Source of the DNA: Escherichia phage vB-Eco-KMB39
Length of the DNA: 64,000 bases
Reading direction: 5' to 3' (one strand)
Sequence record: OR539219.1
Part shown: positions 12,072-53,109 of the stretch, piece after piece
Position numbering within the stretch: the first letter of the stretch is position 1
How the letters are laid out: every line of letters starts with the position of its first letter
Translations under genes and position numbers: made by a program
The notes under the pieces: model-generated
What the model was told of the DNA's origin: nothing
Databases searched by the model: none
What the model saw: only the letters and a program-made list of their open reading frames with translations

Positions 12072-12752
12072 TTATTTTAATGTTACGAAAGAAGAGTTGC
12101 GTGTTTCACGAATTAAAACTGATCCGTCACGGTTAATGTAGTAAATTAAGCTAAATAAAGTTTGGTGTGCCGACGCGTGTTCAAAACTAGTTGGGTGAGA
12201 TTTCCAATCCGGAGTTTCAGCGATCCATTGATAAATCCACCAAGGAACCGTGCAAAATCCTGGATTTTTTCCAATCAGCTGAAGATTCGGACTAAAGTTT
12301 TCCGGAAGAGTAAATACAGACGGCTTTTCAGATTCAATAATCTCAGCTACAGCCTGTTCGAATTTTTCTTCAACAAAAGGAGTATCTTCAATCAAAACGT
12401 CAGTATTTTCGGGAATTTTATCCGTTTCTACTACTTCAATTTTAATGTCAGATTTAACCGGAGAATCAATCAGAAGTGCTGCTTCTGGATTGACTTCTTC
12501 ATCGTCATATTTTAACCCCTCTGCGGCATCAGCAGCATTGATTAAGTCTTTAATAGATAACCCATCAGTCTCTGGCATAGGTTCACTAGCGAGCTTCTGG
12601 AGGGCTTCTTCAATATCAATAACGATATTATCAAAAGATTTATTCTTTTTGACCTTTATACCAAACTGTTCAGCATATTCAGCTAATTTAGCTTTAGCTT
12701 CTTTATTATCATCAAGAGCCTTCAGCTCTGCAATATAATCTTTATCTATCAT
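12072..12752 (-). CDS. inh: inhibitor of prohead protease Inh
   Basis: 226 aa ORF immediately upstream of hoc; synteny with T4 inh. Confidence 0.65.
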   Translation of the reverse strand: MIDKDYIAELKALDDNKEAKAKLAEYAEQFGIKVKKNKSFDNIVIDIEEALQKLASEPMPETDGLSIKDLINAADAAEGLKYDDEEVNPEAALLIDSPVKSDIKIEVVETDKIPENTDVLIEDTPFVEEKFEQAVAEIIESEKPSVFTLPENFSPNLQLIGKNPGFCTVPWWIYQWIAETPDWKSHPTSFEHASAHQTLFSLIYYINRDGSVLIRETRNSSFVTLK

Positions 12753-12765
12753 AATATTTCCTCAG

Positions 12766-12773
12766 TATAAATA
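12766..12773 (+). promoter_or_regulatory. late promoter core TATAAATA (seg-like gene / uvsW)
   Basis: Exact match 28 bp upstream of ATG 12802. Confidence 0.55.
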
Positions 12774-12801
12774 TAGATATATTTATTACTCGGAAAATAG
12801 T

Positions 12802-13419
12802 ATGTACCACTTTGTATATGAAACAACAAATCTAATAAACGGTAAAAAGTATATAGGAAAACACTCTACTGATGACTTGAATGATGGTTACCTTGGTTCC
12901 GGTAAGGCAATTCAGCAGGCTATAAAGAAATATGGTGAAAACAATTTCTCTAGAACAATACTAAAAGAGTTTAAAACTTCCGAAGAAGCGTACATGTATG
13001 AAGAAGAAATTATAACTCCTGAAATAATAAAAAGCAAAAATTATTATAATATGAAACCTGGTGGAATTGGTGGAATTGTTATGACTACAGAGGTTATAGC
13101 AAAGATGAAAGAATCTTCCGCTAAGAGATTTGAAAACTCACCGGGCACGGTATTAGGTACAACTTGTTACACCAATGGAACTAAAAATATTTTTATTAAA
13201 CCTGGAGAACTTGTTCCAGAAGGATTTGTAAAAGGGATGGTTCATCCTAATAGAAAGTCCAGAAAAGGATGTAAAGTCAAACCGACTACCACAGGAACTT
13301 TTTGGGTCAATAATGGCGCAATAAATAAATTAATACAACCAGACGGTATTATTCCCGACGGATTTATTAAAGGTCGTCTCATGAAAAGAGATTCTAAAGG
13401 CAAATTTAGTAAGGCATAA
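12802..13419 (+). CDS. segE: GIY-YIG homing endonuclease (SegE-like)
   Basis: 205 aa; N-terminal GIY-YIG module YHFVYETTNLINGKKYIGKHS; sits between hoc/inh block and uvsW as segE does in T4. Confidence 0.65.
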   Translation: MYHFVYETTNLINGKKYIGKHSTDDLNDGYLGSGKAIQQAIKKYGENNFSRTILKEFKTSEEAYMYEEEIITPEIIKSKNYYNMKPGGIGGIVMTTEVIAKMKESSAKRFENSPGTVLGTTCYTNGTKNIFIKPGELVPEGFVKGMVHPNRKSRKGCKVKPTTTGTFWVNNGAINKLIQPDGIIPDGFIKGRLMKRDSKGKFSKA

Positions 13420-13421
13420 TT

Positions 13422-14930
13422 ATGGATATTAAAGTACATTTTCACGACTTCAGTCATGTACGCATCGATTGTGAAGAGAGCACGTTCCACGAATTAAGAG
13501 ATTTCTTTTCGTTTGAGGCAGATGGATATAGGTTTAATCCTCGCTTCAGATATGGCAACTGGGATGGACGAATCCGTCTTTTAGATTATAATCGTCTTCT
13601 TCCGTTCGGCTTAGTCGGGCAAATTAAAAAGTTCTGCGATAACTTTGGCTATAAAGCCTGGATTGACCCTCAAATTAATGAAAAAGAAGAATTATCAAGA
13701 AAAGATTTTGATGAATGGCTTTCTAAATTAGAAATCTATTCAGGAAATAAAAGAATTGAACCACACTGGTATCAAAAAGATGCAGTGTTCGAAGGATTAG
13801 TTAATCGTCGCAGAATTCTTAATCTTCCAACATCCGCAGGTAAATCTTTAATTCAAGCTTTGCTTGCACGTTATTATTTGGAAAATTATGAAGGTAAAAT
13901 TCTTATCATTGTTCCAACAACTGCTCTGACAACTCAGATGGCTGATGACTTTGTTGACTATCGTTTATTCAGTCATGCAATGATAAAGAAAATCGGCGGC
14001 GGAGCATCAAAAGATGATAAATATAAAAATGATGCACCAGTCGTCGTTGGTACATGGCAAACTGTAGTTAAACAACCGAAAGAATGGTTCTCACAGTTTG
14101 GAATGATGATGAATGATGAATGTCATCTTGCTACAGGAAAAAGTATTTCATCTATCATATCAGGATTAAATAACTGTATGTTTAAATTTGGTCTATCAGG
14201 TTCATTACGTGATGGCAAAGCCAATATCATGCAGTATGTTGGAATGTTTGGTGAAATATTTAAACCAGTAACGACTTCTAAATTAATGGAAGATGGACAA
14301 GTAACTGAGCTAAAAATTAATAGTATTTTTCTTCGCTATCCCGATGAGTTCACTACTAAATTAAAGGGAAAAACTTACCAAGAAGAAATAAAAATTATTA
14401 CTGGACTCAGTAAAAGAAATAAATGGATTGCTAAATTAGCTATTAAACTTGCACAAAAAGATGAAAACGCTTTTGTCATGTTTAAGCATGTATCACATGG
14501 TAAAGCTATTTTCGATTTAATTAAAAATGAATACGATAAAGTTTATTACGTATCAGGGGAAGTTGATACCGAAACACGCAACGTAATGAAAACCCTAGCT
14601 GAAAACGGTAAAGGAATAATTATAGTAGCTAGTTATGGTGTATTTTCTACTGGTATTTCAGTTAAAAATCTGCATCACGTTGTTTTAGCGCACGGTGTTA
14701 AATCAAAAATCATTGTATTACAAACAATCGGTCGTGTATTACGTAAGCATGGTTCTAAGACAATAGCAACAGTCTGGGATCTTATAGATGACGCGGGCGT
14801 AGTTTCTAAATCAAAAACATCTTCTAAAAAATACTCGCATTTAAACTATCTTTTAAAACATGGACTTGATCGTATTCAGCGTTATGCTGATGAAAAGTTT
14901 AATTATGTGATGAAAGAGGTTAAACTTTGA
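13422..14930 (+). CDS. uvsW: UvsW RNA-DNA / DNA helicase
   Basis: 502 aa; Walker A LPTSAGKS and helicase motifs; MDIKVHFHDFSHVRIDCEE... Confidence 0.9.
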   Translation: MDIKVHFHDFSHVRIDCEESTFHELRDFFSFEADGYRFNPRFRYGNWDGRIRLLDYNRLLPFGLVGQIKKFCDNFGYKAWIDPQINEKEELSRKDFDEWLSKLEIYSGNKRIEPHWYQKDAVFEGLVNRRRILNLPTSAGKSLIQALLARYYLENYEGKILIIVPTTALTTQMADDFVDYRLFSHAMIKKIGGGASKDDKYKNDAPVVVGTWQTVVKQPKEWFSQFGMMMNDECHLATGKSISSIISGLNNCMFKFGLSGSLRDGKANIMQYVGMFGEIFKPVTTSKLMEDGQVTELKINSIFLRYPDEFTTKLKGKTYQEEIKIITGLSKRNKWIAKLAIKLAQKDENAFVMFKHVSHGKAIFDLIKNEYDKVYYVSGEVDTETRNVMKTLAENGKGIIIVASYGVFSTGISVKNLHHVVLAHGVKSKIIVLQTIGRVLRKHGSKTIATVWDLIDDAGVVSKSKTSSKKYSHLNYLLKHGLDRIQRYADEKFNYVMKEVKL

Positions 14931-15619
14931 ATTATAAATTAATATATGATAATTTAATTAATAGAGCCCAGAATCGGGCTCGCCTTAATGGATACACTGA
15001 AACACATCATATAATTCCTAGATGTATGGGTGGTACAAATGATAAGTGTAATTTAGTAGAACTAACGGCTGAAGAACATTTTATAGCCCATAAACTTTTA
15101 GCTAAAATTCATCCAAACCATTACGGTATAATTAAAGCTGTTATATGTATGGGGATGAATTCAAATACTCATGAAAGACACGTCAATAAATCTTACGCAT
15201 GGGAACGTCGTAAAATGGCAGAACTTCAATCCGGCGAAGGTAATCCATTTTACGGAAAACACCATACGGAAGAACATAAACAATATATGTCAAAACTCAT
15301 GAAAAGTCGTCCAATTACATGGGGAAATAAAATTAGTAAAACTAAAAGAATGAACCCAACGAAATGGACTGAAGAAGCTAAAAGATTACATTCAATCAAT
15401 CAATCGGGTAAAAATAACGGCATGTATGGAAGGAAACATTCCGCTAAATCTATTCAGAAAATTAAAGATAACATGCCAGATAATTCAGGAGCTAATAACC
15501 CAGCTGCTAAACCTATAGAAGTAAATGGTGTTAAGTATAAATGTATGAAAGATGCTTCTAAAGCTACTGGATTATCAATGTACAAACTAAGAATACTTAG
15601 AAAAACAGTTAATTTATAA
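14927..15619 (+). CDS. HNH homing endonuclease (Mob-like), TTG-initiated
   Basis: 230 aa; N-terminus near-identical to the mobE product at 42495-43226 (MNY.IY.DLI.RAQ...ETHHI.P.CMGG); starts at TTG 14927 overlapping uvsW TGA; GAGG 7 nt upstream. Confidence 0.75.
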   Translation: MNYKLIYDNLINRAQNRARLNGYTETHHIIPRCMGGTNDKCNLVELTAEEHFIAHKLLAKIHPNHYGIIKAVICMGMNSNTHERHVNKSYAWERRKMAELQSGEGNPFYGKHHTEEHKQYMSKLMKSRPITWGNKISKTKRMNPTKWTEEAKRLHSINQSGKNNGMYGRKHSAKSIQKIKDNMPDNSGANNPAAKPIEVNGVKYKCMKDASKATGLSMYKLRILRKTVNL

Positions 15620-15632: not shown

Positions 15633-15875
15633 TTGGAGAAAAAGATGTTACTAGAATTTAAACAATTTCTTTATGAAGCTTCTATTGATGAATTTATGGG
15701 TAAAATTGCCTCTTGTCAAACATTAGAAGGTTTAGAAGAACTTGAAGCTTATTATAAGAAAAGAGTTAAAGAAACTGAATTAAAAGATACTGATGACATC
15801 TCTGTGAGAGATGCTTTGGCAGGAAAAAGAGCTGAATTAGAAGATTCAGATGATGAAGTAGAAGAAAGCTTTTAA
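15633..15875 (+). CDS. small acidic protein (UvsW.1-like)
   Basis: 80 aa ORF with GGAG RBS after UUCG hairpin; position downstream of uvsW. Confidence 0.55.
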   Translation: MEKKMLLEFKQFLYEASIDEFMGKIASCQTLEGLEELEAYYKKRVKETELKDTDDISVRDALAGKRAELEDSDDEVEESF

Positions 15876-17229: not shown

Positions 17230-17855
17230 TATAGTAACTCAAAGAACTCTTTGAGGCCTCTTATTACGTGAGCATGGGTTTTTCCACACTCTGGACACTT
17301 AATTGGAACAGCCAAATAAACAGTAGGCTTTAAAAGCATATCTTTTATAGCTACAATATCTGACTCTGTGATGATAGAATATAAATCTTCCAGTTCTTTT
17401 TCATTTAAGTCTTCAACTGGAATGCTTTCCCCGTTAGCATGAATCGTTTCTATACATGATACTATCATGTGGGCTATATTTTTATCATCAAAAATTTTAG
17501 GGTATCGGAATTTAATTTTAATGTCACCCAGTGTATACCAGAGGTCTTCTGGTGCATCTATTTGTGTATGTAATAGATTTATATGGGTTGGTATTTCAGT
17601 TCCACAGGTGCACTTCCAGGAGTTTTCGTGATTAACTTCACCGAGAGAATGTGCCCATAAATGAATCAACAATAGTTCTGATTCTTGGCGGTTTAAATCT
17701 TTTGCATTTGTGCAGTCTTTGATTAGCTTTTTAACAATTACTTCTACGGAACCATTATTTTTGGCAGTAATAAGTTCTAGATATTCTTTAAGCGTGAATG
17801 CGCGACAATTGATTATTTTAGAACCAACTCTCACATCAAATTTGTATTCATACAT
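17229..17855 (-). CDS. 26: baseplate hub protein gp26
   Basis: 208 aa; divergent from gene 51 across a bidirectional late promoter. Confidence 0.75.
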
Positions 17856-17876
17856 ATTTAGCTCCTTTATTTATCA

Positions 17877-17884
17877 TATTTATA
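17877..17884 (-). promoter_or_regulatory. late promoter core TATAAATA (gene 26), overlapping the gene 51 promoter
   Basis: Reverse complement of TATTTATA; palindrome TATTTATAAATA gives two divergent cores. Confidence 0.6.
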
Positions 17885-17888
17885 AATA
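17881..17888 (+). promoter_or_regulatory. late promoter core TATAAATA (gene 51)
   Basis: Exact match 17 bp upstream of gene 51 ATG. Confidence 0.7.
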
Positions 17889-17905
17889 GAATAAAAGGAG
17901 CATCT

Positions 17906-18655
17906 ATGGCAAACATTATTCGTTGTAAATTACCAGATGGTGTTCATCGTTTTAAACCATTTACGGTAGAAGATTATCGAGATTTTTTGTTAGTTCGAAA
18001 CGATATAGAACATCGGTCACCACAAGAACAGAAAGAAATAATTACTGATTTAATTGATGATTATTTTGGAGACTATCCGAAGACTTGGCAACCATTTATA
18101 TTTTTGCAGGTATTTGTAGGGTCAATAGGTAAAACAAAAGTACCGGTCACATTTGTATGTCCAAAATGTAAAAAAGAAAAGACAGTTCCATTTGAAATAT
18201 ATCAAAAAGAATTAAAGGAACCTGTTTTTGATGTAGCTAATGTTAAAATTAAATTAAAGTTTCCTTCTGAGTTTTATGAAAATAAAGCAAAGATGATTAC
18301 TGAAAATATTCATTCTGTTCAAGTAGATGAAATATGGTATGATTGGAAGGAAATTAGTGAATCCAGTCAAATAGAACTTGTTGATGCCATCGAGATAGAA
18401 ACATTAGAAAAAATTCTCGATGCAATGAATCCTATTAATTTAACTCTACATATGTCATGCTGTAATAAGTACATTAAAAAATACACTGATATAGTAGACG
18501 TGTTTAAGCTATTAGTTAACCCAGATGAGATATTTACTTTTTATCAAATTAATCACACACTCGTAAAAAGTAATTATAGCTTAAATTCAATAATGAAAAT
18601 GATTCCTGCCGAGCGCGGATTCGTATTAAAACTGATTGAGAAGGATAAACAATAA
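17906..18655 (+). CDS. 51: baseplate hub assembly protein gp51
   Basis: 249 aa; late promoter TATAAATA at 17881; CxxC pairs. Confidence 0.75.
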
Positions 18656-19827
18656 TGAGTATGTTGCAACGCCCCGGATATCCAAATCTCAGCGTTAAAT
18701 TATTTGATAGCTACGACGCTTGGAGTAATAATAGATTTGTTGAATTAGCTGCTACTATTACTACATTAACTATGCGGGATTCTCTTTATGGCCGAAATGA
18801 AGGAATGCTGCAGTTTTATGATTCTAAAAACATCCATACAAAAATGGATGGAAATGAAATAATTCAGATTTCTGTAGCTAATGCAAATGATATTAATAAT
18901 GTTAAAACACGAATTTATGGATGTAAGCATTTTTCCGTGTCAGTAGATTCAAAAGGTGATAACATCATTGCTATTGAATTGGGAACTATTCATTCTATAG
19001 AAAATCTTAAATTTGGTAGACCATTTTTCCCTGATGCGGGTGAATCAATAAAAGAAATGCTTGGTGTCATTTATCAAGACCGTACACTATTAACTCCAGC
19101 AATAAATGCTATAAATGCTTATGTTCCTGATATTCCATGGACTAGCACATTTGAAAACTATTTGTCATATGTAAGAGAAGTTGCTCTAGCTGTAGGAAGT
19201 GACAAATTTGTATTTGTGTGGCAAGACATCATGGGAGTTAACATGATGGACTATGATATGATGATAAACCAAGAACCATATCCAATGATTGTCGGCGAGC
19301 CATCTTTAATAGGTCAATTCATCCAAGAATTAAAATACCCATTAGCATATGATTTCGTTTGGTTGACTAAATCGAATCCTCACAAACGTGACCCAATGAA
19401 AAATGCTACTATCTATGCTCATTCATTTTTAGATTCTTCATTGCCAATGATTACTACGGGAAAGGGCGAAAACTCTATTGTAGTGTCAAGGTCAGGTGCT
19501 TATTCTGAAATGACTTATAGGAATGGTTATGAAGAAGCTATTCGTCTTCAAACTATGGCACAATATGACGGCTATGCTAAATGTTCTACTGTTGGTAATT
19601 TTAACTTGACTCCTGGTGTTAAAATTATTTTTAATGATAGTAAAAACCAATTTAAAACAGAATTTTACGTTGATGAAGTTATCCATGAATTATCCAATAA
19701 TAACTCAGTAACTCATCTATATATGTTCACTAATGCAACGAAACTGGAAACAATAGACCCAGTTAAGGTTAAAAATGAATTTAAATCTGATACTACCACT
19801 GAAGAAAGTAGTTCTTCCAATAAGTAA
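18655..19827 (+). CDS. 27: baseplate hub protein gp27
   Basis: 390 aa; ATGA coupling with gene 51. Confidence 0.8.
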
Positions 19828-20308
19828 TAAAGAAGTTTCTATTCCTAAAATGGGTCTTAAACATTATAACATTTTAAAAGATGTTAAAGGCCCTGATGAA
19901 AATTTAAAACTTCTTATTGATTCTATTTGTCCGAATTTGTCACCAGCAGAAGTTGATTTCGTTTCTATTCATTTATTGGAATTTAATGGAAAGATTAAAT
20001 CTCGTAAAGAAATAGATGGTTATACTTATGACATTAATGATGTTTATGTGTGCCAAAGATTAGAATTTCAATACCAAGGAAATACATTTTATTTTAGACC
20101 TCCTGGAAAATTTGAACAATTTTTAACGGTGAGCGATATGTTATCTAAATGCTTACTTAAGGTCAACGATGAAGTTAAAGAAATTAATTTTCTTGAGATG
20201 CCAGCATTCGTTTTAAAATGGGCAAATGATATTTTTACAACTTTAGCAATTCCTGGCCCTAATGGTCCAATAACTGGAATTGGCAATATTATTGGATTAT
20301 TTGAATGA
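19775..20308 (+). CDS. 28: baseplate hub distal protein gp28
   Basis: 177 aa; ATG 19775 with AAGG RBS; overlaps 3' end of gene 27. Confidence 0.7.
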
Positions 20309-22077
20309 AAAAGCCACAAGAAATGCAAACGATGCGTAGAAAAGTTATTTCAGATAATAAACCAACACAGGAAGCGGCTAAATCCGCTTCTAACACTTTA
20401 TCTGGACTTAATGATATATCTACGAAATTGGATGATGCTCAAGCTGCTTCTGAATTAATAGCTCAAACTGTCGAAGAAAAATCGAATGAAATAGTTGGAG
20501 CAATTGGTAACGTAGAAAGCGCAGTGAGTGATACTACTGCCGGTTCTGAGTTAATTGCTGAAACTGTCGAAATTGGCAACAATATTAATAAAGAAATCGG
20601 TGAATCACTCGGAAGCAAATTAGATAAATTAACAAGTTTACTGGAACAAAAAATTCAGACAGCTGGAATTCAGCAAACTGGAACGAGTTTAGCTACGGTT
20701 GAAAGCGCTATTCCCGTTAAAGTCGTTGAGGATGGTACTGCTGAATCTGTGGGTCCTTTATTACCAGCTCCTGAAGCAGTTAATAATGATCCTGACGCTG
20801 ATTTTTTCCCTACCCCTCAGCCAGTTGAGCCAAAGCAAGAATCACCAGAAGAAAAACAGAAAAAAGAAGCATTTAACTTAAAATTATCTCAAGCTTTAGA
20901 TAAATTAACAAAGACAGTTGATTTTGGATTTAAGAAATCCATTTCAATTACTGATAAAATATCAAGCATGCTATTTAAGTATACCGTCAGTGCTGCTATT
21001 GAAGCTGCTAAAATGACTGCAATGATATTGGCTGTTGTTGTTGGAATAGACCTGTTGATGGTTCATTTTAAATACTGGTCAGATAAATTTTCAAAAGCCT
21101 GGGATTTATTTAATACTGACTTTACTAAATTCTCTAGCGAAACCGGAACATGGGGTCCTTTATTACAGAGCATCTTTGATTCTATTGATAAAATTAAACA
21201 ACTTTGGGAAGCGGGAGATTGGGGTGGATTGACAGCAGCTATTGTTGAAGGACTCGGAAGTGTTCTTTTTAATTTAGGTGAACTTATTCAATTAGGTATG
21301 GCTAAATTATCTGCAGCAATTCTTCGAGTCATTCCTGGTATGAAGGATACTGCTGATGAAGTAGAAGGAAGAGCATTAGAAAATTTCCAAAATTCTACTG
21401 GAGCATCTCTCAATAAAGAAGACCAGGAAAAAGTTGCAAATTATCAAGATAAACGAATGAATGGAGACCTTGGTCCGATAGCAAAAGGATTAGATAAAAT
21501 TGCTAATTGGAAAACTCGTGCATCTAATTGGATTCGTGGGGTTGATAATAAAGAAGCACTAACTACCGACGAAGAACGCGCAGCAGAAGAAGAAAAATTA
21601 AAGCAACTTTCACCTGAAGAAAGAAAAAATGCTTTAATGAAGGCTAATGAAGCCCGTGCCGCAATGATTCGCTTTGAAAAATATGCTGATTCAGCTGATA
21701 TGAGTAAAGACTCAACGGTTAAATCAGTTGAAGCTGCCTATGAAGACCTTAAAAAACGGATGGATGACCCGGATTTAAATAATTCGCCGGCAGTTAAAAA
21801 AGAACTTGCTGCTAGATTTTCTAAAATTGATGCTACTTATCAAGAGCTCAAGAAAAATCAGCCTAATGCCAAACCTGAAACTTCTGCTAAATCGCCAGAA
21901 GCAAAACAAGTCCAGGTAATAGAAAAGAACAAAGCACAGCAAGCTCCTGTTCAACAAGCATCTCCTTCAATCAATAATACTAATAATGTTATTAAGAAAA
22001 ATACTGTCGTTCATAATATGACACCCGTAACGAGCACGACTGCTCCTGGTGTATTTGATGCGACTGGAGTTAATTAA
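20305..22077 (+). CDS. 29: baseplate hub / tail length determinator gp29
   Basis: 590 aa, extended alpha-helical low-complexity protein; synteny. Confidence 0.8.
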   Translation: MKKPQEMQTMRRKVISDNKPTQEAAKSASNTLSGLNDISTKLDDAQAASELIAQTVEEKSNEIVGAIGNVESAVSDTTAGSELIAETVEIGNNINKEIGESLGSKLDKLTSLLEQKIQTAGIQQTGTSLATVESAIPVKVVEDGTAESVGPLLPAPEAVNNDPDADFFPTPQPVEPKQESPEEKQKKEAFNLKLSQALDKLTKTVDFGFKKSISITDKISSMLFKYTVSAAIEAAKMTAMILAVVVGIDLLMVHFKYWSDKFSKAWDLFNTDFTKFSSETGTWGPLLQSIFDSIDKIKQLWEAGDWGGLTAAIVEGLGSVLFNLGELIQLGMAKLSAAILRVIPGMKDTADEVEGRALENFQNSTGASLNKEDQEKVANYQDKRMNGDLGPIAKGLDKIANWKTRASNWIRGVDNKEALTTDEERAAEEEKLKQLSPEERKNALMKANEARAAMIRFEKYADSADMSKDSTVKSVEAAYEDLKKRMDDPDLNNSPAVKKELAARFSKIDATYQELKKNQPNAKPETSAKSPEAKQVQVIEKNKAQQAPVQQASPSINNTNNVIKKNTVVHNMTPVTSTTAPGVFDATGVN

Positions 22078-22085
22078 GGAATAAT

Positions 22086-23180
22086 ATGGCAATTGTTAAA
22101 GAAATAACTGCTGATTTAATTAAAAAGTCCGGTGAGAAAATTTCAGCCGGACAGAGTACTAAATCAGAAGTAGGAACTAAAACATACACTGCCCAGTTTC
22201 CAACTGGGCGTGCTAGTGGTAATGACACTACAGGGGACTTCCAGGTAACAGATCTATATAAGAATGGATTATTATTTACTGCATACAATATGTCATCTAG
22301 GGATTCTGGAAGTCTTAGATCGATGAGATCTAACTACTCTTCTTCATCTTCGAGTATTTTACGTACAGCCAGAAACACTATTAGTAGTACAGTATCAAAA
22401 CTATCAAATGGATTAATATCAGATAATAATTCAGGAACAATAAGTAAAGCTCCTATCGCAAACATTCTTTTACCGAGATCTAAATCTGATGTTGATACAT
22501 CATCACACAGATTTAATGATGTTCAAGAAAGCCTTATCAGTAGAGGCGGAGGTACTGCTACTGGTGTGCTAAGTAATATTGCTTCAACCGCAGTATTTGG
22601 GGCGCTGGAAAGTATAACACAAGGTATAATGGCTGATAATAATGAACAGATTTATACGACAGCCAGAAGTATGTATGGTGGTGCTGAAAATAGAACTAAA
22701 GTGTTTACATGGGATTTGACTCCACGTTCAACAGAAGATTTAATGGCTATTATTAATATCTATCAATATTTTAACTATTTTTCTTATGGTGAAACGGGTA
22801 AATCTCAATATGCTGCTGAAATAAAGGGGTATTTAGATGATTGGTATCGTTCTACGTTAATTGAACCTTTATCTCCGGAAGACGCAGCTAAAAATAAAAC
22901 ACTATTTGAGAAAATGACATCGAGTTTAACTAACGTTCTAGTGGTTTCAAACCCGACAATTTGGATGGTGAAAAACTTTGGTGCAACATCTAAGTTTGAT
23001 GGAAAAACGGAAATATTTGGTCCATGTCAAATACAGAGTATCAGATTTGATAAAACACCTAATGGTAACTTTAACGGATTAGCTATTGCTCCAAACCTCC
23101 CTAGTACATTTACTCTTGAGATTACTATGAGAGAAATTATCACGTTAAACCGTGCTTCTTTATATGCGGGGACTTTTTAA
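22086..23180 (+). CDS. 48: baseplate tail tube cap gp48
   Basis: 364 aa; synteny. Confidence 0.8.
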   Translation: MAIVKEITADLIKKSGEKISAGQSTKSEVGTKTYTAQFPTGRASGNDTTGDFQVTDLYKNGLLFTAYNMSSRDSGSLRSMRSNYSSSSSSILRTARNTISSTVSKLSNGLISDNNSGTISKAPIANILLPRSKSDVDTSSHRFNDVQESLISRGGGTATGVLSNIASTAVFGALESITQGIMADNNEQIYTTARSMYGGAENRTKVFTWDLTPRSTEDLMAIINIYQYFNYFSYGETGKSQYAAEIKGYLDDWYRSTLIEPLSPEDAAKNKTLFEKMTSSLTNVLVVSNPTIWMVKNFGATSKFDGKTEIFGPCQIQSIRFDKTPNGNFNGLAIAPNLPSTFTLEITMREIITLNRASLYAGTF

Positions 23181-24145
23181 TGTATTCTTTAGAGGAATTT
23201 AATAATCAAGCAATAAACGCAGATTTCCAACGTAATAATATGTTTAGCTGCGTTTTTGCGACAACTCCATCAACTAAAAGCTCTTCGTTGATAAGTTCAA
23301 TTAGCAACTTTTCTTATAATAACTTGGGTCTAAATTCAGATTGGTTAGGATTGACTCAAGGCGATATTAATCAGGGAATTACCGCGCTAATTACAGCTGG
23401 CACACAAAAACTGATAAGAAAATCAGGAGTTAGTAAATATCTTATTGGTGCCATGAGTCAACGTACAGTTCAAAGTTTATTAGGCTCATTTACAGTTGGT
23501 ACATATTTAATTGACTTCTTTAACATGGCATATAACTCATCTGGATTGATGATATATTCTGTAAAAATGCCAGAGAATAGATTATCCTATGAAACTGACT
23601 GGAACTATAATTCTCCTAATATTCGTATAACTGGGAGAGAATTAGACCCTTTGGTTATTTCATTTAGAATGGATTCAGAAGCTTGTAACTATCGTGCAAT
23701 GCAAGACTGGGTTAACGCTGTTCAAGACCCAGTAACTGGACTGCGTGCTTTGCCACAAGATGTCGAGGCAGATATTCAGGTTAATCTTCATTCTCGCAAT
23801 GGATTACCTCATACTGCGGTAATGTTCACCGGATGCATTCCAATGTCAGTGAGCGCTCCTGAATTATCATATGATGGAGATAACCAAATAACTACATTTG
23901 ATGTTACTTTTGCGTATAGAGTCATGCAGGCTGGAGCAGTTGATAGGCAAGCTGCGCTTGAATGGCTTGAATCTGCTGCTATAAATGGTATTCAAAGCGT
24001 TCTCGGAAATAGTGGAGGTGTTACTGGACTATCTAATTCGCTTTCACGACTCAGTAGATTAGGTGGAACTGCAGGAAGCATTTCAAACATTAATACTATG
24101 ACAGGAATTGTCAATTCGCAAAGTAAAATATTAGGAGCAATATAA
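23180..24145 (+). CDS. 54: baseplate tail tube initiator gp54
   Basis: 321 aa; ATGA coupling with 48; bidirectional terminator after stop. Confidence 0.8.
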   Translation: MYSLEEFNNQAINADFQRNNMFSCVFATTPSTKSSSLISSISNFSYNNLGLNSDWLGLTQGDINQGITALITAGTQKLIRKSGVSKYLIGAMSQRTVQSLLGSFTVGTYLIDFFNMAYNSSGLMIYSVKMPENRLSYETDWNYNSPNIRITGRELDPLVISFRMDSEACNYRAMQDWVNAVQDPVTGLRALPQDVEADIQVNLHSRNGLPHTAVMFTGCIPMSVSAPELSYDGDNQITTFDVTFAYRVMQAGAVDRQAALEWLESAAINGIQSVLGNSGGVTGLSNSLSRLSRLGGTAGSISNINTMTGIVNSQSKILGAI

Positions 24146-24149
24146 CAAT

Positions 24150-24175
24150 GGGGACCTTTCGGTCCCCATATTTTT
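24150..24175. terminator. bidirectional terminator after gene 54 / 96-aa ORF
   Basis: GGGGACC-TTTC-GGTCCCC then TATTTTTATTT. Confidence 0.7.
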
Positions 24176-24464
24176 ATTTACGGAATGAAATGAAAGCAGC
24201 AACTGAAGCAACTAAACTGTCTTCAATATAAACTTCAATTTTTACCGGAGCTTCTGACTCAAATTTACCTGTTACTACACCCTGAAAAATACTTTCAGTC
24301 TGTTTTGGCTTTGAAAAATTTTCAGAAGGAAAAATTCCGAACTTTTTATCTGTTCCAAAAATTTTGATAAATTCATCGTAAACTGCTTCATTAAAAGCGT
24401 TATCAGCAGGAATAACGCCTTCAACTACAAGTTCTTGACCTAAAAAGCGCAAAGAAGATTTCAT
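24174..24464 (-). CDS. hypothetical protein downstream of alt
   Basis: 96 aa; own early-type promoter (GTTTAC / TATAGT) and GAGGAA RBS. Confidence 0.5.
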   Translation of the reverse strand: MKSSLRFLGQELVVEGVIPADNAFNEAVYDEFIKIFGTDKKFGIFPSENFSKPKQTESIFQGVVTGKFESEAPVKIEVYIEDSLVASVAAFISFRK

Positions 24465-24495
24465 TTTGTGTTCCTCATGTTATGTCAGTAAGACT

Positions 24496-24525
24496 ACTAT
24501 AACACAACATAAGGAACTTGTAAAC
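24496..24525 (-). promoter_or_regulatory. T4-type early promoter (GTTTAC -35, TATAGT -10)
   Basis: GTTTAC-N18-TATAGT on - strand, upstream of ORF 24174-24464. Confidence 0.55.
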
Positions 24526-26582
24526 TACATTTTGAACTTTTTAGACATTCCGTTGATGTTAACCAAAGAAGCCAAGATTTGAGAAACTTCGTTTTCCTCT
24601 TCTTTTGATTCTTCTACAAGAAATTGATTAAATCCAGCCATTGGACGAACTTCACCAGTTTCCATTAGATGGTCTCCATCATATACTGATTCTTCTAATT
24701 GTTCAGAAGGAGGAACGATTGTACCTTCAATTAGATACTTGTTATAAGCAGTTTCTTTCATAAAGTACGTACTTACTTTATTAATCTTCAGTAAAATTCC
24801 ACGCGGTAGAATAACTTCAGCTTCTGATGGAAATCCTGATAAATGACCTGGAACGATAACTTTGATTCGCTCAGCTCCTTTAATTACCATACCCACGCTA
24901 GTTTCAGCATCTTCATTAGCATATGTAGAATGACTACCCATATGCATCAAATCTTCTGCATCAACGGAATCTTCTCCTTCACCGGAAAATACTGCGCCGG
25001 AATCATCTAGAGCCATATAGTTTTTACCATGCTCACCGAAGATATTTGGTTTAAGCGATGTGGATACGAAGTTCTTGAAATAAAACATTTTATTTTCAAT
25101 GTTATGACGCAAAGTTTTAAAGGTAACTTCTTGTCCACGGTAAAGCGTAGTTCCTGGAGGAAGAACTGAACCTTTAGCGAATGCAGAATCCAACGTCTCG
25201 ATGTGCTTAATAGCACGTTCCATATATTCTTCACGGGTAGAATCTGGTTTACCCAAAAGGAACGAGTTCATTTCAACATATGAATCTGCACAATAATCTT
25301 CAATTACATCAGACTCAGCCTGAGTCAGTCCTTTTGGAGTTACTTCAGTGCTTGCGTATTCATATGCCTGAGCAGCAGATTCATTAATCAATTTATAAAT
25401 GCCATTCATGACAAATTGAATAATAGCTGTCTTTTCATCTGGCGTAGCTTTAGAACCTTTAACCAAATCATTGATAATTTTCTTAATAACATCAAAGCTA
25501 TTAGAAATATTAATGTCAGCAAGATCGCTTAAAATTTTATCGGTTTTATAATCAAAGAATTCTTTATTCTTTAAATATTCTTGAGAACCTTGATATGTTA
25601 TATCGCTCTGCAGCTTGATAGATGGATCACGTAAACGCGCATGGGCCAATGCGATATGATTTCGGAAGTTTTCTAGTTCATAATCGCTAGATTTAAAACG
25701 AGAAGCACTCCTCATACCACCAATAGCTCCTTTGCTGAAGTTTGAACCAATCTGGATAACGCCAGAGTTCATTGGTCCTTCTGCTTTATATACCGGAACT
25801 TTAGATTCAAACTCTTGATATTTCTTGGCAGCGAAGCTATCACCCTGAAGTGAAGCATCAACAGTAGAATATTGAGCTTGTGCTGCTAATCGACGACTGA
25901 TTTTAGTTTTCTGAATAACAGCTTGGTCCGTGCGTTTATCATTTTCTAAAGCAATAGAAGCAGCAACAGCGACAGCTTTAGGAACAGCATTTCCTGTTTT
26001 AACGTCTACATAAACATCACCGACCTTTGATTCAACTTTTGTGAATAACTCAGTTGAAATAGGAGGTACACCTGGAATGTCTTCTAAATTGGCATTTTTA
26101 CGGTAAACCATAATATATGCATACTTTTTATCATAGTCCCAGATTTCCTTTAAAAGAACATATCGACCTGCTCCTTTAGTACGTACTAAACGGTCAGCAA
26201 TAACTTGCATTTGACGAGCTGCGCCATTTGTTTTACTCTTTAGTACACGGAATAAGCACGCGTCAATTTTGTACTGCTTCATTGTTTGAAGAGCAGTATC
26301 AAAAACAGCATTAATGACGCCAATTGGATTTCCACCCAAGTTTCTAAGCTTAACCAGCGATAATTTCTCGTTGACACCTATCATTACGATATGCATCATT
26401 TTATCGCCTAGTTTAACGTTTTTATTTGTATCACCACCAGAGGTGTATGTACAAAATCTAAATCCAGGAAGCACGCTTTCTTCGCCGGCTTGGATAGCAA
26501 AAATTTGAGGTATTTTATGCTTAGGATTTAAGTTAACAACCGGCGCCGAAGCGCCGTCAAATAATTCTGTAATAAGTTCCAT
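24525..26582 (-). CDS. alt: Alt-family ADP-ribosyltransferase (copy 1, 685 aa)
   Basis: C-terminal ART signature: R (LYRGQ), S-T-S (FVSTSL), E-x-E (SEAEVILPRG); N-terminus MELITELFD... Confidence 0.8.
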   Translation of the reverse strand: MELITELFDGASAPVVNLNPKHKIPQIFAIQAGEESVLPGFRFCTYTSGGDTNKNVKLGDKMMHIVMIGVNEKLSLVKLRNLGGNPIGVINAVFDTALQTMKQYKIDACLFRVLKSKTNGAARQMQVIADRLVRTKGAGRYVLLKEIWDYDKKYAYIMVYRKNANLEDIPGVPPISTELFTKVESKVGDVYVDVKTGNAVPKAVAVAASIALENDKRTDQAVIQKTKISRRLAAQAQYSTVDASLQGDSFAAKKYQEFESKVPVYKAEGPMNSGVIQIGSNFSKGAIGGMRSASRFKSSDYELENFRNHIALAHARLRDPSIKLQSDITYQGSQEYLKNKEFFDYKTDKILSDLADINISNSFDVIKKIINDLVKGSKATPDEKTAIIQFVMNGIYKLINESAAQAYEYASTEVTPKGLTQAESDVIEDYCADSYVEMNSFLLGKPDSTREEYMERAIKHIETLDSAFAKGSVLPPGTTLYRGQEVTFKTLRHNIENKMFYFKNFVSTSLKPNIFGEHGKNYMALDDSGAVFSGEGEDSVDAEDLMHMGSHSTYANEDAETSVGMVIKGAERIKVIVPGHLSGFPSEAEVILPRGILLKINKVSTYFMKETAYNKYLIEGTIVPPSEQLEESVYDGDHLMETGEVRPMAGFNQFLVEESKEEENEVSQILASLVNINGMSKKFKM

Positions 26583-26585
26583 GAT

Positions 26586-28679
26586 TTATCCTTGAACGAA
26601 CTTGTAAGGCATGTTTGTAATATCTATGCAAGACGCAATAATTCCAAGAGATGATTCTACTTTCTGTTTAACATTTGATGAAACAAATGATGCAAAGTCA
26701 ACTTTGTCTTCTATTTCAATATCACCTGTCATTGCAACTACTTCGCCGGTTTCCATTAAACGGTCACCGTCATAAATTACCGATTCGGTGAGTTCTTCTG
26801 TGGTCATAACTTCAGCTTGAATGAGTTTTGTATTATTAGACGTGATTCCGTCATTATTAGAAGCATCAGTTATTTTATTAACTTTGACCATCAATCCACG
26901 CGGTAGAATAACTTCAGCTTCTGTTGCTATTCCGAGACTTCCTGGATATACAACATTAACTTTATGAGCTCCATCAATTGCCCATCCTATTTGAACTTTA
27001 ACGTATTCAGGATTTTCTTTATACGCTCTTATTTCGTTTGGATTAATAGTTATTCCTTCTTCATTTTTATCAACTGTTAATTCATTGCGAGCTTCTGGTT
27101 CTAAAAGACCAATACCAGCATGTGTAATTCCAAAACGTCCAAAAATGATAGGAGTTAAAGAAGTAGATACAAAATTTCTGAAATAGAACACTTTATTTTT
27201 AACTAGTGCTTCGTATATAGGAGCAGTCATACTTTGAGCACGATAAACTGTAATGCCTTCTGGTATACGGTCACCATTTTCAAAAGCTGAATCTAAATTA
27301 TTTATAGCAGATTCAATTTCTTTTTCACTCATTATATCATATCGTTCTGGATTGTAACGACCTAAAAGAAGATTATTGATGTCTGTATATCCTGAACCAC
27401 AATACTCTCTAATGCCGCGCTTTTGTGATGGAGTATATTTAGAACCATCACGGGCAATAGTAATATCAATCATTGGACCTGCACCAATTCCGGAAAAGCT
27501 ATAAATCATTCGTTTGAGGAATTTAGTTTTTGCTGCATTCCAGGCATTTTTAGTTATTTCTCCCCAGACTTCATCTGGCTGCCCTTTACGAGTTTTATTA
27601 TGTTTATCAAGCCAATTATCTTTATATTCTTCAAATAATTGATTAACAGCTGCTGCGTATTTCTCTAAACATTTTATTGAAGTAGTTGGTTCATTTTTAA
27701 TCGCATTAAGAATTACATCTTTAATTTTTTCTGAAACTTCACCGACTTGACTCATTGGAAAGAATTTATAATCATAGTGAAGTTCATCTGCCGTTCCTTC
27801 AGCAATAATTTTTGCTGCCTTAGTTTTAGAAGCTAATGAATTAATTCCAAGCTTCATTTCTTCTGCTTCGGGAATTAAAGGTGCAGTAGCAGGTTTATTG
27901 AAATTAGCTGCGGTAGATTCATACTTCTGGAATAATTCACTTTCAAATCTAGAAGATTCCAATGACTGACTTTGTGCAATTGCTCTACGGGAAATTTTAA
28001 CTTTAACGATTACGGCTTGGTCAGAACGTTTATCGTTTTCTTGTGCAATAGATGCAGCAATTGCCTCATTTTTGGTTACTTGAGCTCCAGTATCTTTATT
28101 AATATAAACATCACCGACCTTCGATTCAACTTTAGTAAAGAGCTCGGTACTAATTTCCGGAACTCCTGGAATGTCTTCTAGTGATACATTTTTGCGATGT
28201 ATAAGAATATATGCATACTTTTTATCATAATCCCAGAGTTCCTTAAGAAGGACGTATCTGCCACCTGAACGACTACGGATAAGTCTATCAGCAATAACTT
28301 GAATTTGTCGAGCTTGGCCAGCAGTTTTAGACTTAAGAATACGAAGCATACAAGCATCAATTTTATACTGACGCATTGTTTGCATTGCAACAGTAAAAAC
28401 TGAATTGATATAATTAATTGGGCTTGGACCAAGACCTTTTAATTTAGCAATTGAACCTTTAGCAGTTAATGTAAAAGGAACAATATGCATCATTTTGTCG
28501 CCCATTTTTAAATCGCGATTAGTATCACCTCCAGATGTATAGGTACATAAACGAAAGCCTGGTTGTTCAATTGCATCATCAACATGAACTGAAAAAATTT
28601 GTGGTATTTTCTTCTTTGGATTTAAGTTTGTAATCGGAAGAGTAGTATCTTCGTCAAATAATTCTGTAATAAGTTCCAT
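26586..28679 (-). CDS. alt: Alt-family ADP-ribosyltransferase (copy 2, 697 aa)
   Basis: Same N-terminus and ART motifs (VYRAQ, FVSTSL, TEAEVILPRG); central region diverged; late promoter TATAAATA upstream. Confidence 0.8.
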   Translation of the reverse strand: MELITELFDEDTTLPITNLNPKKKIPQIFSVHVDDAIEQPGFRLCTYTSGGDTNRDLKMGDKMMHIVPFTLTAKGSIAKLKGLGPSPINYINSVFTVAMQTMRQYKIDACMLRILKSKTAGQARQIQVIADRLIRSRSGGRYVLLKELWDYDKKYAYILIHRKNVSLEDIPGVPEISTELFTKVESKVGDVYINKDTGAQVTKNEAIAASIAQENDKRSDQAVIVKVKISRRAIAQSQSLESSRFESELFQKYESTAANFNKPATAPLIPEAEEMKLGINSLASKTKAAKIIAEGTADELHYDYKFFPMSQVGEVSEKIKDVILNAIKNEPTTSIKCLEKYAAAVNQLFEEYKDNWLDKHNKTRKGQPDEVWGEITKNAWNAAKTKFLKRMIYSFSGIGAGPMIDITIARDGSKYTPSQKRGIREYCGSGYTDINNLLLGRYNPERYDIMSEKEIESAINNLDSAFENGDRIPEGITVYRAQSMTAPIYEALVKNKVFYFRNFVSTSLTPIIFGRFGITHAGIGLLEPEARNELTVDKNEEGITINPNEIRAYKENPEYVKVQIGWAIDGAHKVNVVYPGSLGIATEAEVILPRGLMVKVNKITDASNNDGITSNNTKLIQAEVMTTEELTESVIYDGDRLMETGEVVAMTGDIEIEDKVDFASFVSSNVKQKVESSLGIIASCIDITNMPYKFVQG

Positions 28680-28702
28680 GTTATCCTCTCTAGTGTTTAT
28701 TC

Positions 28703-28710
28703 TATTTATA
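28703..28710 (-). promoter_or_regulatory. late promoter core TATAAATA (Alt copy 2)
   Basis: Reverse-strand exact match 23 bp upstream of ATG 28679. Confidence 0.65.
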
Positions 28711-28715
28711 AAATT

Positions 28716-28733
28716 AAAGGCCCGAAGGCCTTT
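28716..28733 (-). terminator. hairpin upstream of Alt copy 2 late promoter
   Basis: AAAGGCC-CGAA-GGCCTTT (UUCG loop on - strand). Confidence 0.5.
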
Positions 28734-28735
28734 AA

Positions 28736-28921
28736 TTAATAGAGAGCTAAAAGAGTACGATATACTTCAAACTTTGGACCTTTTTCATATGGATCAAATC
28801 TTTCCATGAATTCATCATATGCTAGTTTATCTGGGAATTCAAGAATAACCTGCGATACCGCAGTGGAAACATCTCCACCTTCTTTTTGAGCCACGACAAT
28901 TGTTTCTAAGTAAGCTTTCAT
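28736..28921 (-). CDS. hypothetical small protein
   Basis: 61 aa; ATGA-coupled to gene 30 stop; terminator hairpin downstream. Confidence 0.45.
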   Translation of the reverse strand: MKAYLETIVVAQKEGGDVSTAVSQVILEFPDKLAYDEFMERFDPYEKGPKFEVYRTLLALY

Positions 28922-30381
28922 AAACCAGTTACCTCATGAAAATCGCCAAATACATCTTCGAACGTATTAGCTTTAGTTTTATCTTCACGTAAACGAATTG
29001 CAATTGGAAGAAATAGCTTAACGTAATCAGTACGTCCATCTAATTTTACCCAGCCGTTGCATTCGCACTCTAGAATTTTTCCAATATAATAATTTTGGTT
29101 TTCCATAATGCGAGTACGATCAAGTTCATGCGATTTTATACCGGCTTTATCTTTTAAGCCTGAACCAGCATTTACTTTAATTTTTCCACACTCTGATTCA
29201 AGAATGAAACCACCTGCTTTAGTAGGGTCTTTACGGTGAGGATAAATTCCTACAATTTTTAAATCAACATCAATTACTTCTTTAAATTTATAAAGATTTT
29301 TTGAACGAGCATTTTCCCATAATCCATCGATATTTTTAAGAATAATACCTTCAAGACCTTGGTCAATATACTTTTTATAAATTACCTTAGCTTCATCTAG
29401 GTTATTTACTACTTGGTTTTCAATTAAAATTACTTTATCATAGCCTGATGTCATTTGTTCTAGTTTAGAAAAACGTACATCATATTTTAAACGAAATGCT
29501 GGAAGACCATATATTTCTACTAATGGAACATAGTCCCAGACCTGAAACTTCATGCATTGTGCTTCTTTTTCAGAAATGGTTCCCTTTAAAGATTTATTAG
29601 CGATTCCATTAGAAGTAGTACGTGATTCAGCTACTTCGGCGAATTCTTTAGCTTTACTAATTTCAGGATAAGCATCAAAAAGAAAATCTAGGCCTTCTGG
29701 TTCCTTTTTAACTTGCTCATGGTATACCAATTCGCCATCAATTAACACACCTTCTGGATGAATCTGGCGAGCTTCTGCAGTCATTTTGATTAACTCTTCC
29801 TTGAGAAGATCTAATCCTAGATATTCATTACCAGCTCGTGATAAAAGACGAACATCATCTAATTCATCACCTCTGACTTCAGCAAAACAGCGAGCTCCAT
29901 CAGCTTTTAGCTGTGCAAAGGCTGGAAATTTGATATTCTTATTAATGCCTTTTTCGTCATAAGAACTTGCTAGCATTTGAGGTTGTTCAGGAATTAAACC
30001 TGGCCAAACTTTGTTTGCAATAGATACTGATGCACCGCATTCAAGGTCTCGCATCATCACCCGACGCAAAACTTCAACATCATCTTTTTTACCGTCAGTA
30101 ATATATCCAGTTAATTCCTCAATTGCCGCATTTCCAGTCAATTTCCGAGTAGCTAACGTGAATTCAATGAAGTCAAGCATATCGGTAAGAGTCAACATTC
30201 CAAAACTCTGGGTAGTAATACCCGGTTTAGGCCATTTCTTGATATAATACTGTAACCCACGAGAATAAGTCAGACGATATACTCGTTTAAGCAATTCATT
30301 ATCTTTATTCTTTTCAAGAATTGCTTGCTTCTGCTTAGTTGAACCAATAGATGCTATTTCGTTCAGAATTTTAAGAATCAT
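28918..30381 (-). CDS. 30: ATP-dependent DNA ligase gp30
   Basis: 487 aa; adenylation lysine motif region (...KADGARC...); MILKILNEIASIGSTKQKQAILEKN... Confidence 0.95.
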   Translation of the reverse strand: MILKILNEIASIGSTKQKQAILEKNKDNELLKRVYRLTYSRGLQYYIKKWPKPGITTQSFGMLTLTDMLDFIEFTLATRKLTGNAAIEELTGYITDGKKDDVEVLRRVMMRDLECGASVSIANKVWPGLIPEQPQMLASSYDEKGINKNIKFPAFAQLKADGARCFAEVRGDELDDVRLLSRAGNEYLGLDLLKEELIKMTAEARQIHPEGVLIDGELVYHEQVKKEPEGLDFLFDAYPEISKAKEFAEVAESRTTSNGIANKSLKGTISEKEAQCMKFQVWDYVPLVEIYGLPAFRLKYDVRFSKLEQMTSGYDKVILIENQVVNNLDEAKVIYKKYIDQGLEGIILKNIDGLWENARSKNLYKFKEVIDVDLKIVGIYPHRKDPTKAGGFILESECGKIKVNAGSGLKDKAGIKSHELDRTRIMENQNYYIGKILECECNGWVKLDGRTDYVKLFLPIAIRLREDKTKANTFEDVFGDFHEVTGL

Positions 30382-30647
30382 TGTTCATCCTTTAGAGTTT
30401 GGTTTACAGCTCTATTATAAATCAATTCATCATTAAGCTCAGTCAAAGACCTGTGATACGTGGTTCTAACTTTATTTCCTTGCATCCAGTGCTTGACATA
30501 AATGAAACCTTGCTCTACACATTTTTTAAAAATTCGTTCGTCTTTTTGAGCTCGGAATTCTGGATTGCATCTAAAAAATTGATTTACGTGACCGTAATCA
30601 CGTGTAGTATTACCTTCATTTTCATAAATAGTGTGAACGACAAACAT
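30378..30647 (-). CDS. hypothetical protein (30.1-like)
   Basis: 89 aa, coupled in early operon. Confidence 0.5.
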   Translation of the reverse strand: MFVVHTIYENEGNTTRDYGHVNQFFRCNPEFRAQKDERIFKKCVEQGFIYVKHWMQGNKVRTTYHRSLTELNDELIYNRAVNQTLKDEQ

Positions 30648-51873: not shown

Positions 51874-52527
51874 TCAATACTTGCAAGATTTCACAGTTTC
51901 AATGAAAACATTTTTAGCTTTCTGTGAATCAATATTTAAAATTTTTCTATAAGCCTTTAACTTTATAGAATAATTATTCCAGACTAAATTATCAGTCTGT
52001 TCATCGTGTTTATCAATTATATTTAAAAACGAATCAAGCAAGATAAACGTCTCAAACGAAATTATGTTCGATTGCAGAAGTTTAAAAATATAACTTGACT
52101 GAACCTTTGGATTATATTCAAAGATTTCTTTAAAAGCAGAAACTTCAACTTTTTTACTAAAATAGTAAATATTGCGAATATCTTCTTCAAACTTAAACTT
52201 AATTTGCTTTAAGCGTCCGATATATTCACGATAAAACACAAGTGCATCAGCGTCAGAGATGTCGCCAATCCAAGCATCTTGGTTAGCAACCAAATTACTT
52301 ATAAAGATTAAAGCGAGTTCCTTTAATTTATATTTTTCTGATAACTTCTGGAAAAAATACTTATCCCTTCGCTTTTGATAAGCGGCATCAGACACCCGCA
52401 TGCACCAATTATACTTAATAACATCATACTTTCCATTCATATGTTGTTTTATCATTAAGTATAATTTATAAACTGATTTACCATCAATGTATCTTTCACC
52501 ACCAGCAGGCATGCGGAGTTTAATCAT
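51874..52527 (-). CDS. 59: helicase loader gp59
   Basis: 217 aa; synteny 33-59-32. Confidence 0.75.
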   Translation of the reverse strand: MIKLRMPAGGERYIDGKSVYKLYLMIKQHMNGKYDVIKYNWCMRVSDAAYQKRRDKYFFQKLSEKYKLKELALIFISNLVANQDAWIGDISDADALVFYREYIGRLKQIKFKFEEDIRNIYYFSKKVEVSAFKEIFEYNPKVQSSYIFKLLQSNIISFETFILLDSFLNIIDKHDEQTDNLVWNNYSIKLKAYRKILNIDSQKAKNVFIETVKSCKY

Positions 52528-52862
52528 AGCAGAAAATCTAATGTATTAGTTTTTTCACAACGAACAACAGAAGGACGTAAAAGATTTTCGTCAATAGCTT
52601 CCGACTGAATTTTTTCAATTATACCCGAAGGAATAAATTTAGCAAATTGAGTTTCAGGAATAGAGTTTTCTTCCAAGAATGCTGTCGTAGCTTCAAGATA
52701 ACTCATTCCAAACTCTTCTACCATTTTTTCAATAATAAATCCATTTTCTTGACGATCAAGAAGCTTTGCTATTTCATCCTTTTCTTTCTTGATTGAAAGT
52801 TCTTTTTCTGAAAGACCGGTCTCATCGACCGGACGAATATCATTTAGAGAAAACTGTGTCAT
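52524..52862 (-). CDS. 33: late transcription co-activator gp33
   Basis: 112 aa from ATG 52862; coupled to gene 59. Confidence 0.65.
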   Translation of the reverse strand: MTQFSLNDIRPVDETGLSEKELSIKKEKDEIAKLLDRQENGFIIEKMVEEFGMSYLEATTAFLEENSIPETQFAKFIPSGIIEKIQSEAIDENLLRPSVVRCEKTNTLDFLL

Positions 52863-53109
52863 AAAGTTCAACTACCTCTTCAGTTTCAGCTTCAAACACA
52901 TCACGGTTATCTTTATGATACAAAGCTAATAGACGATTAAACATCTTACCATCAACGCCAAGTTCATCTTTGGCACGAATTCGAATATCTTTAATCAGTT
53001 CATTATAACCGGAAATTTTCAGTTTATGATCAGATGCTTCTTTAATAAATTTAGCCAAGTCTTCGCCATGGATAGCTTCATCAAATTCAACCATTTCTTT
53101 TTTAGCCAT
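52840..53109 (-). CDS. dsbA: dsDNA-binding protein DsbA
   Basis: 89 aa; synteny between rnh and 33. Confidence 0.65.
   Translation of the reverse strand: MAKKEMVEFDEAIHGEDLAKFIKEASDHKLKISGYNELIKDIRIRAKDELGVDGKMFNRLLALYHKDNRDVFEAETEEVVELYDTVFSK

Follow-up and report, generated by a model that had tools for sequence, protein, structure and literature searches.

A 12-bp palindrome carrying two overlapping late-promoter boxes between the divergent baseplate hub genes 26 and 51 of a T4 relative

RESULTS AND DISCUSSION

Divergent baseplate hub genes 26 and 51

Within the window (the whole 64-kb stretch of DNA that was analyzed), genes 26 (minus strand) and 51 (plus strand) diverge from a 50-bp gap, and it is in this gap that the palindrome described here sits. 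The two genes were identified from the T4 annotation and from Pfam family PF12322:

17229 to 17855, minus strand: gene 26, baseplate hub subunit, 208 amino acids
17906 to 18655, plus strand: gene 51, baseplate hub assembly protein (in T4, hub assembly catalyst), 249 amino acids

A first-pass annotation, made from the sequence alone, had read them as genes 26 (−) and 51 (+) of baseplate hub operons, an assignment that both the T4 annotation and Pfam uphold. In the T4 records AF158101 and HM137666, genes 27, 28, and 29 lie beyond gene 51, and gene 25 and uvsY lie beyond gene 26. A search with 1.5 kb around the site returned matches to 501 phage records, with 99.8% identity to Escherichia phage vB_EcoM_G2540 and 99.1% to T4, and the 26/51 gap is base-for-base the same as in T4 (M77695). 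By this degree of identity the window is from a Tequatrovirus, a T4 relative about 99% identical to T4 rather than the T4 reference itself. Also in the window, at 52524 to 53109, are gene 33 and dsbA, which both specify late-transcription factors; genes 55 and 45 are located outside it.

The products of the two flanking genes match PF12322 (T4_baseplate) over its full length, with scores of 215.6 bits for gp26 and 187.2 bits for gp51 against a gathering cutoff of 24.5. The two proteins share 20% identity in BLASTP (E = 1e-5), and profile hidden Markov models of the gp26 and gp51 families cross-match at about 1e-18. On these comparisons, gp26 and gp51 are paralogues. The two genes thus form a head-to-head pair of paralogues with the palindrome at its axis of symmetry, and an ancient inverted duplication is a possible origin of the pair.

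Two late-promoter boxes in one palindrome

Late promoters of T4 consist of the 8-bp element TATAAATA at −13 to −6, followed by an AT-rich stretch downstream and lacking a −35 element (PMC1524935, PMC2988020). Around 50 late-promoter sites are listed for T4, 32 of them at the perfect consensus, and late transcription proceeds in both directions (PMC1524935, PMC2988020). The 26/51 gap contains two such boxes, one on each strand:

17877 to 17888: 12-bp palindrome TATTTATAAATA, comprising two late-promoter boxes with a common central TATA at 17881 to 17884
17881 to 17888, plus strand: P51 late-promoter box TATAAATA, an exact consensus match, facing genes 51-27-28-29 and two open reading frames beyond
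17877 to 17884, minus strand: P26 late-promoter box TATAAATA, an exact consensus match, facing genes 26-25

The palindrome is perfect, being identical to its own reverse complement, and the TATAAATA consensus of Christensen and Young is matched exactly on both strands. The first-pass annotation had claimed a 12-bp palindrome with a late box on both strands, offset by 4 bp, and this arrangement is indeed present at 17877 to 17888. Outside the common core, positions 17885 to 17888 (AATA) are private to P51 and positions 17877 to 17880 are private to P26. Only TATA, the first four letters of TATAAATA, is self-complementary, so 4 bp is the maximum overlap at which boxes on opposite strands can both remain at consensus. 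On both sides the distance from gene to box is 17 to 21 nt, the gene faced is in each case a baseplate hub gene, and a Shine-Dalgarno sequence lies between.

As in other late promoters, there is no conserved −35 element: in an alignment of distinct variants, conservation beyond the 12-mer was confined to the Shine-Dalgarno blocks. No sigma-70-type promoter or terminator pattern was found in the 26/51 gap. No other NATAAATA occurs on the plus strand from 17881 to 30623, where the rightward cluster ends, which leaves P51 as the only consensus-type late promoter of the rightward hub cluster. Upstream of the gene 26-facing box, GATGCTCCT resembles a MotA box at six of nine positions when compared by eye, a weak likeness that we judged unconvincing.

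The exact 12-mer TATTTATAAATA occurs once in the 64-kb window, compared to 0.02 occurrences expected from dinucleotide-preserving shuffles, and the 8-mer TATAAATA occurs 18 times, compared to 9.0 ± 3.2 expected. Taken by themselves, these motif counts make a modest case against chance; what decides the matter is where the palindrome lies, in the 50 bp that separate two divergent late genes, together with its conservation across genera.

Predicted starts and mutually exclusive occupancy

Transcription starts were predicted by taking each box as −13 to −6, following the rule in PMC1524935. The resulting features are as follows:

17894, plus strand: predicted P51 start (A), which would give a leader of 12 nt, AAAGGAGCATCT, ahead of the ATG at 17906
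17871, minus strand: predicted P26 start (A), which would give a leader of 16 nt, AATAAAGGAGCTAAAT, ahead of the ATG at 17855
17895 to 17900, plus strand: gene 51 Shine-Dalgarno sequence AAGGAG, a purine-rich block conserved in all variants
17862 to 17867, minus strand: gene 26 Shine-Dalgarno sequence AAGGAG (CTCCTT on the plus strand), read in the sequence and corresponding to the ribosome_binding_site at 791 to 794 of M77695
17882 to 17895: predicted melted region of P51
17870 to 17883: predicted melted region of P26

A distance of 23 bp separates the predicted starts of P26 and P51, and the predicted melted regions abut, with 2 bp in common. An A is found at the predicted +1 position in 19 of 20 variants for P51 and in 17 of 20 for P26, a preference confounded with the A-rich run that precedes each Shine-Dalgarno sequence. 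Positions −5 to −2 vary freely among the 20 variants.

Cryo-electron microscopy structures show late-promoter DNA unwound between −12 and +2, gp33 on the upstream duplex, and the gp45 ring at the upstream end (PMC7892883, PMC2988020), and gp45 is loaded with a defined polarity (PMC7892883, PMC2988020). The palindrome very probably represents the back-to-back T4 late promoters P26 and P51. Each strand would offer one 8-bp recognition box, TATAAATA, to gp55. Core RNA polymerase with gp55 and gp33, activated by the DNA-loaded clamp gp45, would then melt the DNA from about −12 to +2 and start transcription in one of two directions: rightward from about 17894, into genes 51-27-28-29 and the region past them, or leftward from about 17871, into genes 26-25. 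Both mRNAs would carry very short leaders (12 and 16 nt), with their 5′ ends just upstream of the Shine-Dalgarno sequences. Each polymerase complex, together with its upstream clamp, would cover the opposite promoter, making occupancy of the two mutually exclusive. With predicted starts only 23 bp apart and melted regions that abut, two polymerases could therefore not share the site, and on geometric grounds that we consider sound, simultaneous occupancy of P26 and P51 is sterically implausible. From the same geometry we infer that the two directions would require sliding clamps of opposite polarity.

Conservation of the palindrome across genera

A protein search with gp26 returned 1,309 phage records, and 26/51 junctions were compared from 12 further genera and from 30 IMG/VR contigs. 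The exact palindrome TATTTATAAATA was present in 39 of the 44 loci in which sequence upstream of gene 26 was examined. These represent 19 to 20 distinct variants from approximately 10 genera (Tequatro-, Karam-, Moon-, Mosig-, Jiaoda-, Marfa-, Dhaka-, Gapriver-, Muldoon-, and Lazarusvirus), and the identity of gp26 to that of the window falls as low as 41% among loci that keep the palindrome. Information content was calculated from intergenic variants that carry the exact TATTTATAAATA; in this palindrome-anchored alignment, all 12 palindrome columns held 2.0 bits, compared to 0.1 to 0.7 bits in the four columns on either side. Each of the outer tetrads is invariant and belongs to one box only, which suggests that both promoters are under selection. 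That the whole 12 bp, rather than a single 8-mer, are kept over about 10 genera is an argument for function in both orientations. This comparison offers clean evidence, new here, consistent with use of both orientations.

Departures from the exact palindrome were found in several lineages. In the Krischvirus KFS-EC (locus L013, 1134 to 1203), a 1-bp insertion (TATTTATAAAATA) splits the two boxes, with an exact box toward gene 51 only; on the gene 26 side, ACTAAATA may serve as a replacement. Overlap of the boxes is therefore not obligatory. Aeromonas phages of Tulanevirus and Biquartavirus (L014, 1141 to 1188; L017, 1137 to 1182; and L046) carry a different, 10-bp palindrome, TATTTAAATA, which reads TTTAAATA on both strands with a 6-bp overlap, so that the 2-fold symmetry is kept. 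Genes 26 and 51 do not lie side by side in divergent orientation in Aeh1 or in a cyanophage.

A known promoter pair of T4

The short T4 GenBank record M77695 carries a TATA_box feature for "protein 51" at 768 to 774 (TATTTAT) and another for "protein 26" at 772 to 779 (TATAAATA), and these are the same overlapping palindrome motif. Its depositors also marked two variant boxes on the gene 26 side, given here in window coordinates:

17868 to 17875, minus strand: variant box GATAAATA facing gene 26, an extra TATA box in M77695, found in Tequatrovirus variants only and absent outside that genus among the junctions compared
17845 to 17852: variant box TATGAATA facing gene 26, inside the gene 26 coding sequence

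The site therefore shows no difference from P26/P51 of T4 as annotated in M77695: the genes are the same, the 50-bp gap is identical, and so are the annotated overlapping boxes. The title of Gruidl et al. 1991 (Virology 184:359), cited in PMC2988022, fits the description of M77695. A differential RNA sequencing study of T4 lists 150 start sites (bioRxiv 10.1101/2024.04.04.588121). The full T4 records AF158101 and HM137666 carry no promoter features at the 26/51 site, and a protein search with gp51 turned up no other short T4 record. Scarlato, Storlazzi, Gargano, and Cascino reportedly mapped divergent late transcripts from overlapping promoters of the base plate gene cluster in 1989.

The first-pass annotation had further proposed that the palindrome forms overlapping divergent late promoters of both hub operons. 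The TATA boxes of M77695 and the conservation of the 12 bp support that proposal, and the case that both directions are in use draws on the depositors' annotation, on earlier literature, and on conservation. The palindrome is thus the long-known T4 promoter pair P26/P51, and the proposal was correct but not new. As a discovery it carries small weight, being a textbook-era feature of T4 that has been in GenBank since the early 1990s; what it does illustrate is that T4 late promoters and gene order are recognizable from raw sequence alone.

Alternative explanations for the palindrome

It could be argued that only one of the two boxes works, the other being a by-product of an AT-rich and partly self-complementary consensus, with the operon it faces transcribed from elsewhere. 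The palindromic TATA opens TATAAATA, so a partial mirror image arises easily, and several exact copies of TATAAATA are expected by chance in the window (9.0). Geiduschek and Kassavetis caution that activity in vivo is not proven for all 50 listed T4 late sites (PMC2988020), and T4-type phages possess a second gene 26-facing box, GATAAATA. Yet the private tetrad of an idle box would be expected to drift, whereas 17877 to 17880 and 17885 to 17888 are both invariant in 20 variants whose neighboring positions are variable. Transcription from elsewhere also fits poorly on either side, given that there is no further NATAAATA ahead of gene 51 or the remaining rightward cluster and that GATAAATA is not kept outside Tequatrovirus. 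The depositors of M77695, moreover, gave each gene, 26 and 51, one box. We therefore consider a single working box very unlikely.

Slightly less probable still is that the palindrome is kept mainly as a binding site for a dimeric protein, DsbA or another regulator, with its promoter role secondary. Perfect 2-fold symmetry is typical of dimer operators, and DsbA, whose gene is in the window, binds weakly to AT-rich sites that overlap two late promoters (PMC2988020). Its affinity is only micromolar, however, and DsbA is nonessential (PMC2988020). The limits of the conserved block coincide exactly with those of the two 8-mers, which account for it without any further constraint, and where the palindrome has changed, in the Aeromonas phages, the new sequence still leaves late-box-like 8-mers on both strands. 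A dimeric-protein operator may act as an additional layer at the palindrome but is not needed. That the palindrome works by folding, as a cruciform or hairpin in DNA or RNA, is barely credible. A 42-nt stretch of the gap does fold at −5.4 kcal/mol (z = −2.9), but this signal comes from the opposite-strand Shine-Dalgarno sequences (CTCCTTT/AAAGGAG) and not from the 12-mer, and we rejected the secondary-structure reading for this reason. The Shine-Dalgarno sequences face apart, which makes the gap from 17862 to 17900 a loose inverted repeat (CTCCTTT ... AAAGGAG). A loopless 12-bp palindrome composed entirely of A and T would form a very weak stem, and neither predicted transcript has both arms. 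Among the aligned related phages, no compensatory changes were seen that would preserve pairing at the cost of the TATAAATA boxes.

Relation to other promoters and possible consequences

Taken as back-to-back late promoters, P26 and P51 share with canonical T4 late promoters such as P23 (PMC2988020, PMC7892883) the TATAAATA box, the lack of a −35 element, an AT-rich stretch downstream, and a location before virion genes. They differ from P23 in that two promoters on opposite strands have four base pairs in common, so that the DNA upstream of either promoter is transcribed as the leader of its partner.

Warman, Forrest, Wade, and Grainger described bidirectional sigma-70 promoters in which symmetric −10 elements give rise to starts 7 to 25 bp apart (bioRxiv 10.1101/2020.01.31.928960). 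At the 26/51 site, −10-type elements likewise coincide on opposite strands, and the predicted start spacing of 23 bp falls within the 7- to 25-bp range and among the spacings enriched in that study (bioRxiv 10.1101/2020.01.31.928960). Unlike that class, P26 and P51 would depend on the sigma-like gp55 rather than on sigma-70 and on activation by a polar sliding clamp. T4 late boxes are read by gp55. The site therefore resembles the bidirectional class without belonging to it, because it would be read by gp55 with a clamp that has polarity. Reciprocal stimulation in the bidirectional promoters acts via R451 of sigma-70 and position −18 (bioRxiv 10.1101/2020.01.31.928960), and stimulation of this kind cannot be assumed at the 26/51 site.

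We speculate further that the exact 4-bp overlap may have been selected, and not just tolerated, which would make the palindrome a two-way switch centered on an ancient head-to-head duplication. We regard this idea as unlikely. If it were true, exclusive occupancy and opposite clamp polarity would link the two hub operons or keep their output in balance on each replicating DNA copy. To our knowledge, there has been no test of competition versus reciprocal stimulation at this site, which would lend itself well to studies of competing promoters and of the effects of clamp polarity in gp45-activated transcription.

Similar sites in other phages and elsewhere in the window

A pattern scan of IMG/VR found at least 120 viral contigs in which the 12-mer is flanked by opposite-strand Shine-Dalgarno sequences. 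Among the 80 IMG/VR loci that were fetched (L049 to L128), only 13 were 26/51 junctions. Because the search pattern itself selects for the motif, telling the 67 others apart from chance occurrences would take knowledge of how large the collection is and of its composition, and they serve only as a lead. Others of the sites with the 12-mer lie between divergent tail tube and tail-tube-like genes, again a pair of paralogues, or beside a head-tail adaptor or endolysin gene. Examples of the fetched loci are L082 (5564 to 5599), L109 (3234 to 3271), L080 (6418 to 6475), and L120 (5202 to 5255). The sites between other divergent late-type genes of uncultivated phages hint that the 12-mer device recurs.

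Within the window, opposed late-type boxes also occur at 12766 to 12787, in the gap between inh (12072 to 12752, minus strand) and segE (12802 to 13419, plus strand):

12766 to 12773, plus strand: late-type box TATAAATA
12780 to 12787, minus strand: late-type box AATAAATA

These two boxes are crossed, each lying downstream of the predicted start of the other, and their predicted starts are about 5 bp apart.

Further along the same strand as segE, an open reading frame of 230 amino acids (14927 to 15619, plus strand), in which an HNH-type motif, HHIIPRCMGGTNDKCNLVELT, was recognized by eye, lies between a 502-amino-acid uvsW open reading frame (13422 to 14930) and an 80-amino-acid open reading frame (15633 to 15875) that, by position, we take to be uvsW.1. 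In the T4 reference, uvsW here is one continuous gene of 1,764 bp, which indicates an insertion of about 690 bp in the window. The insertion is probably a mobile endonuclease.
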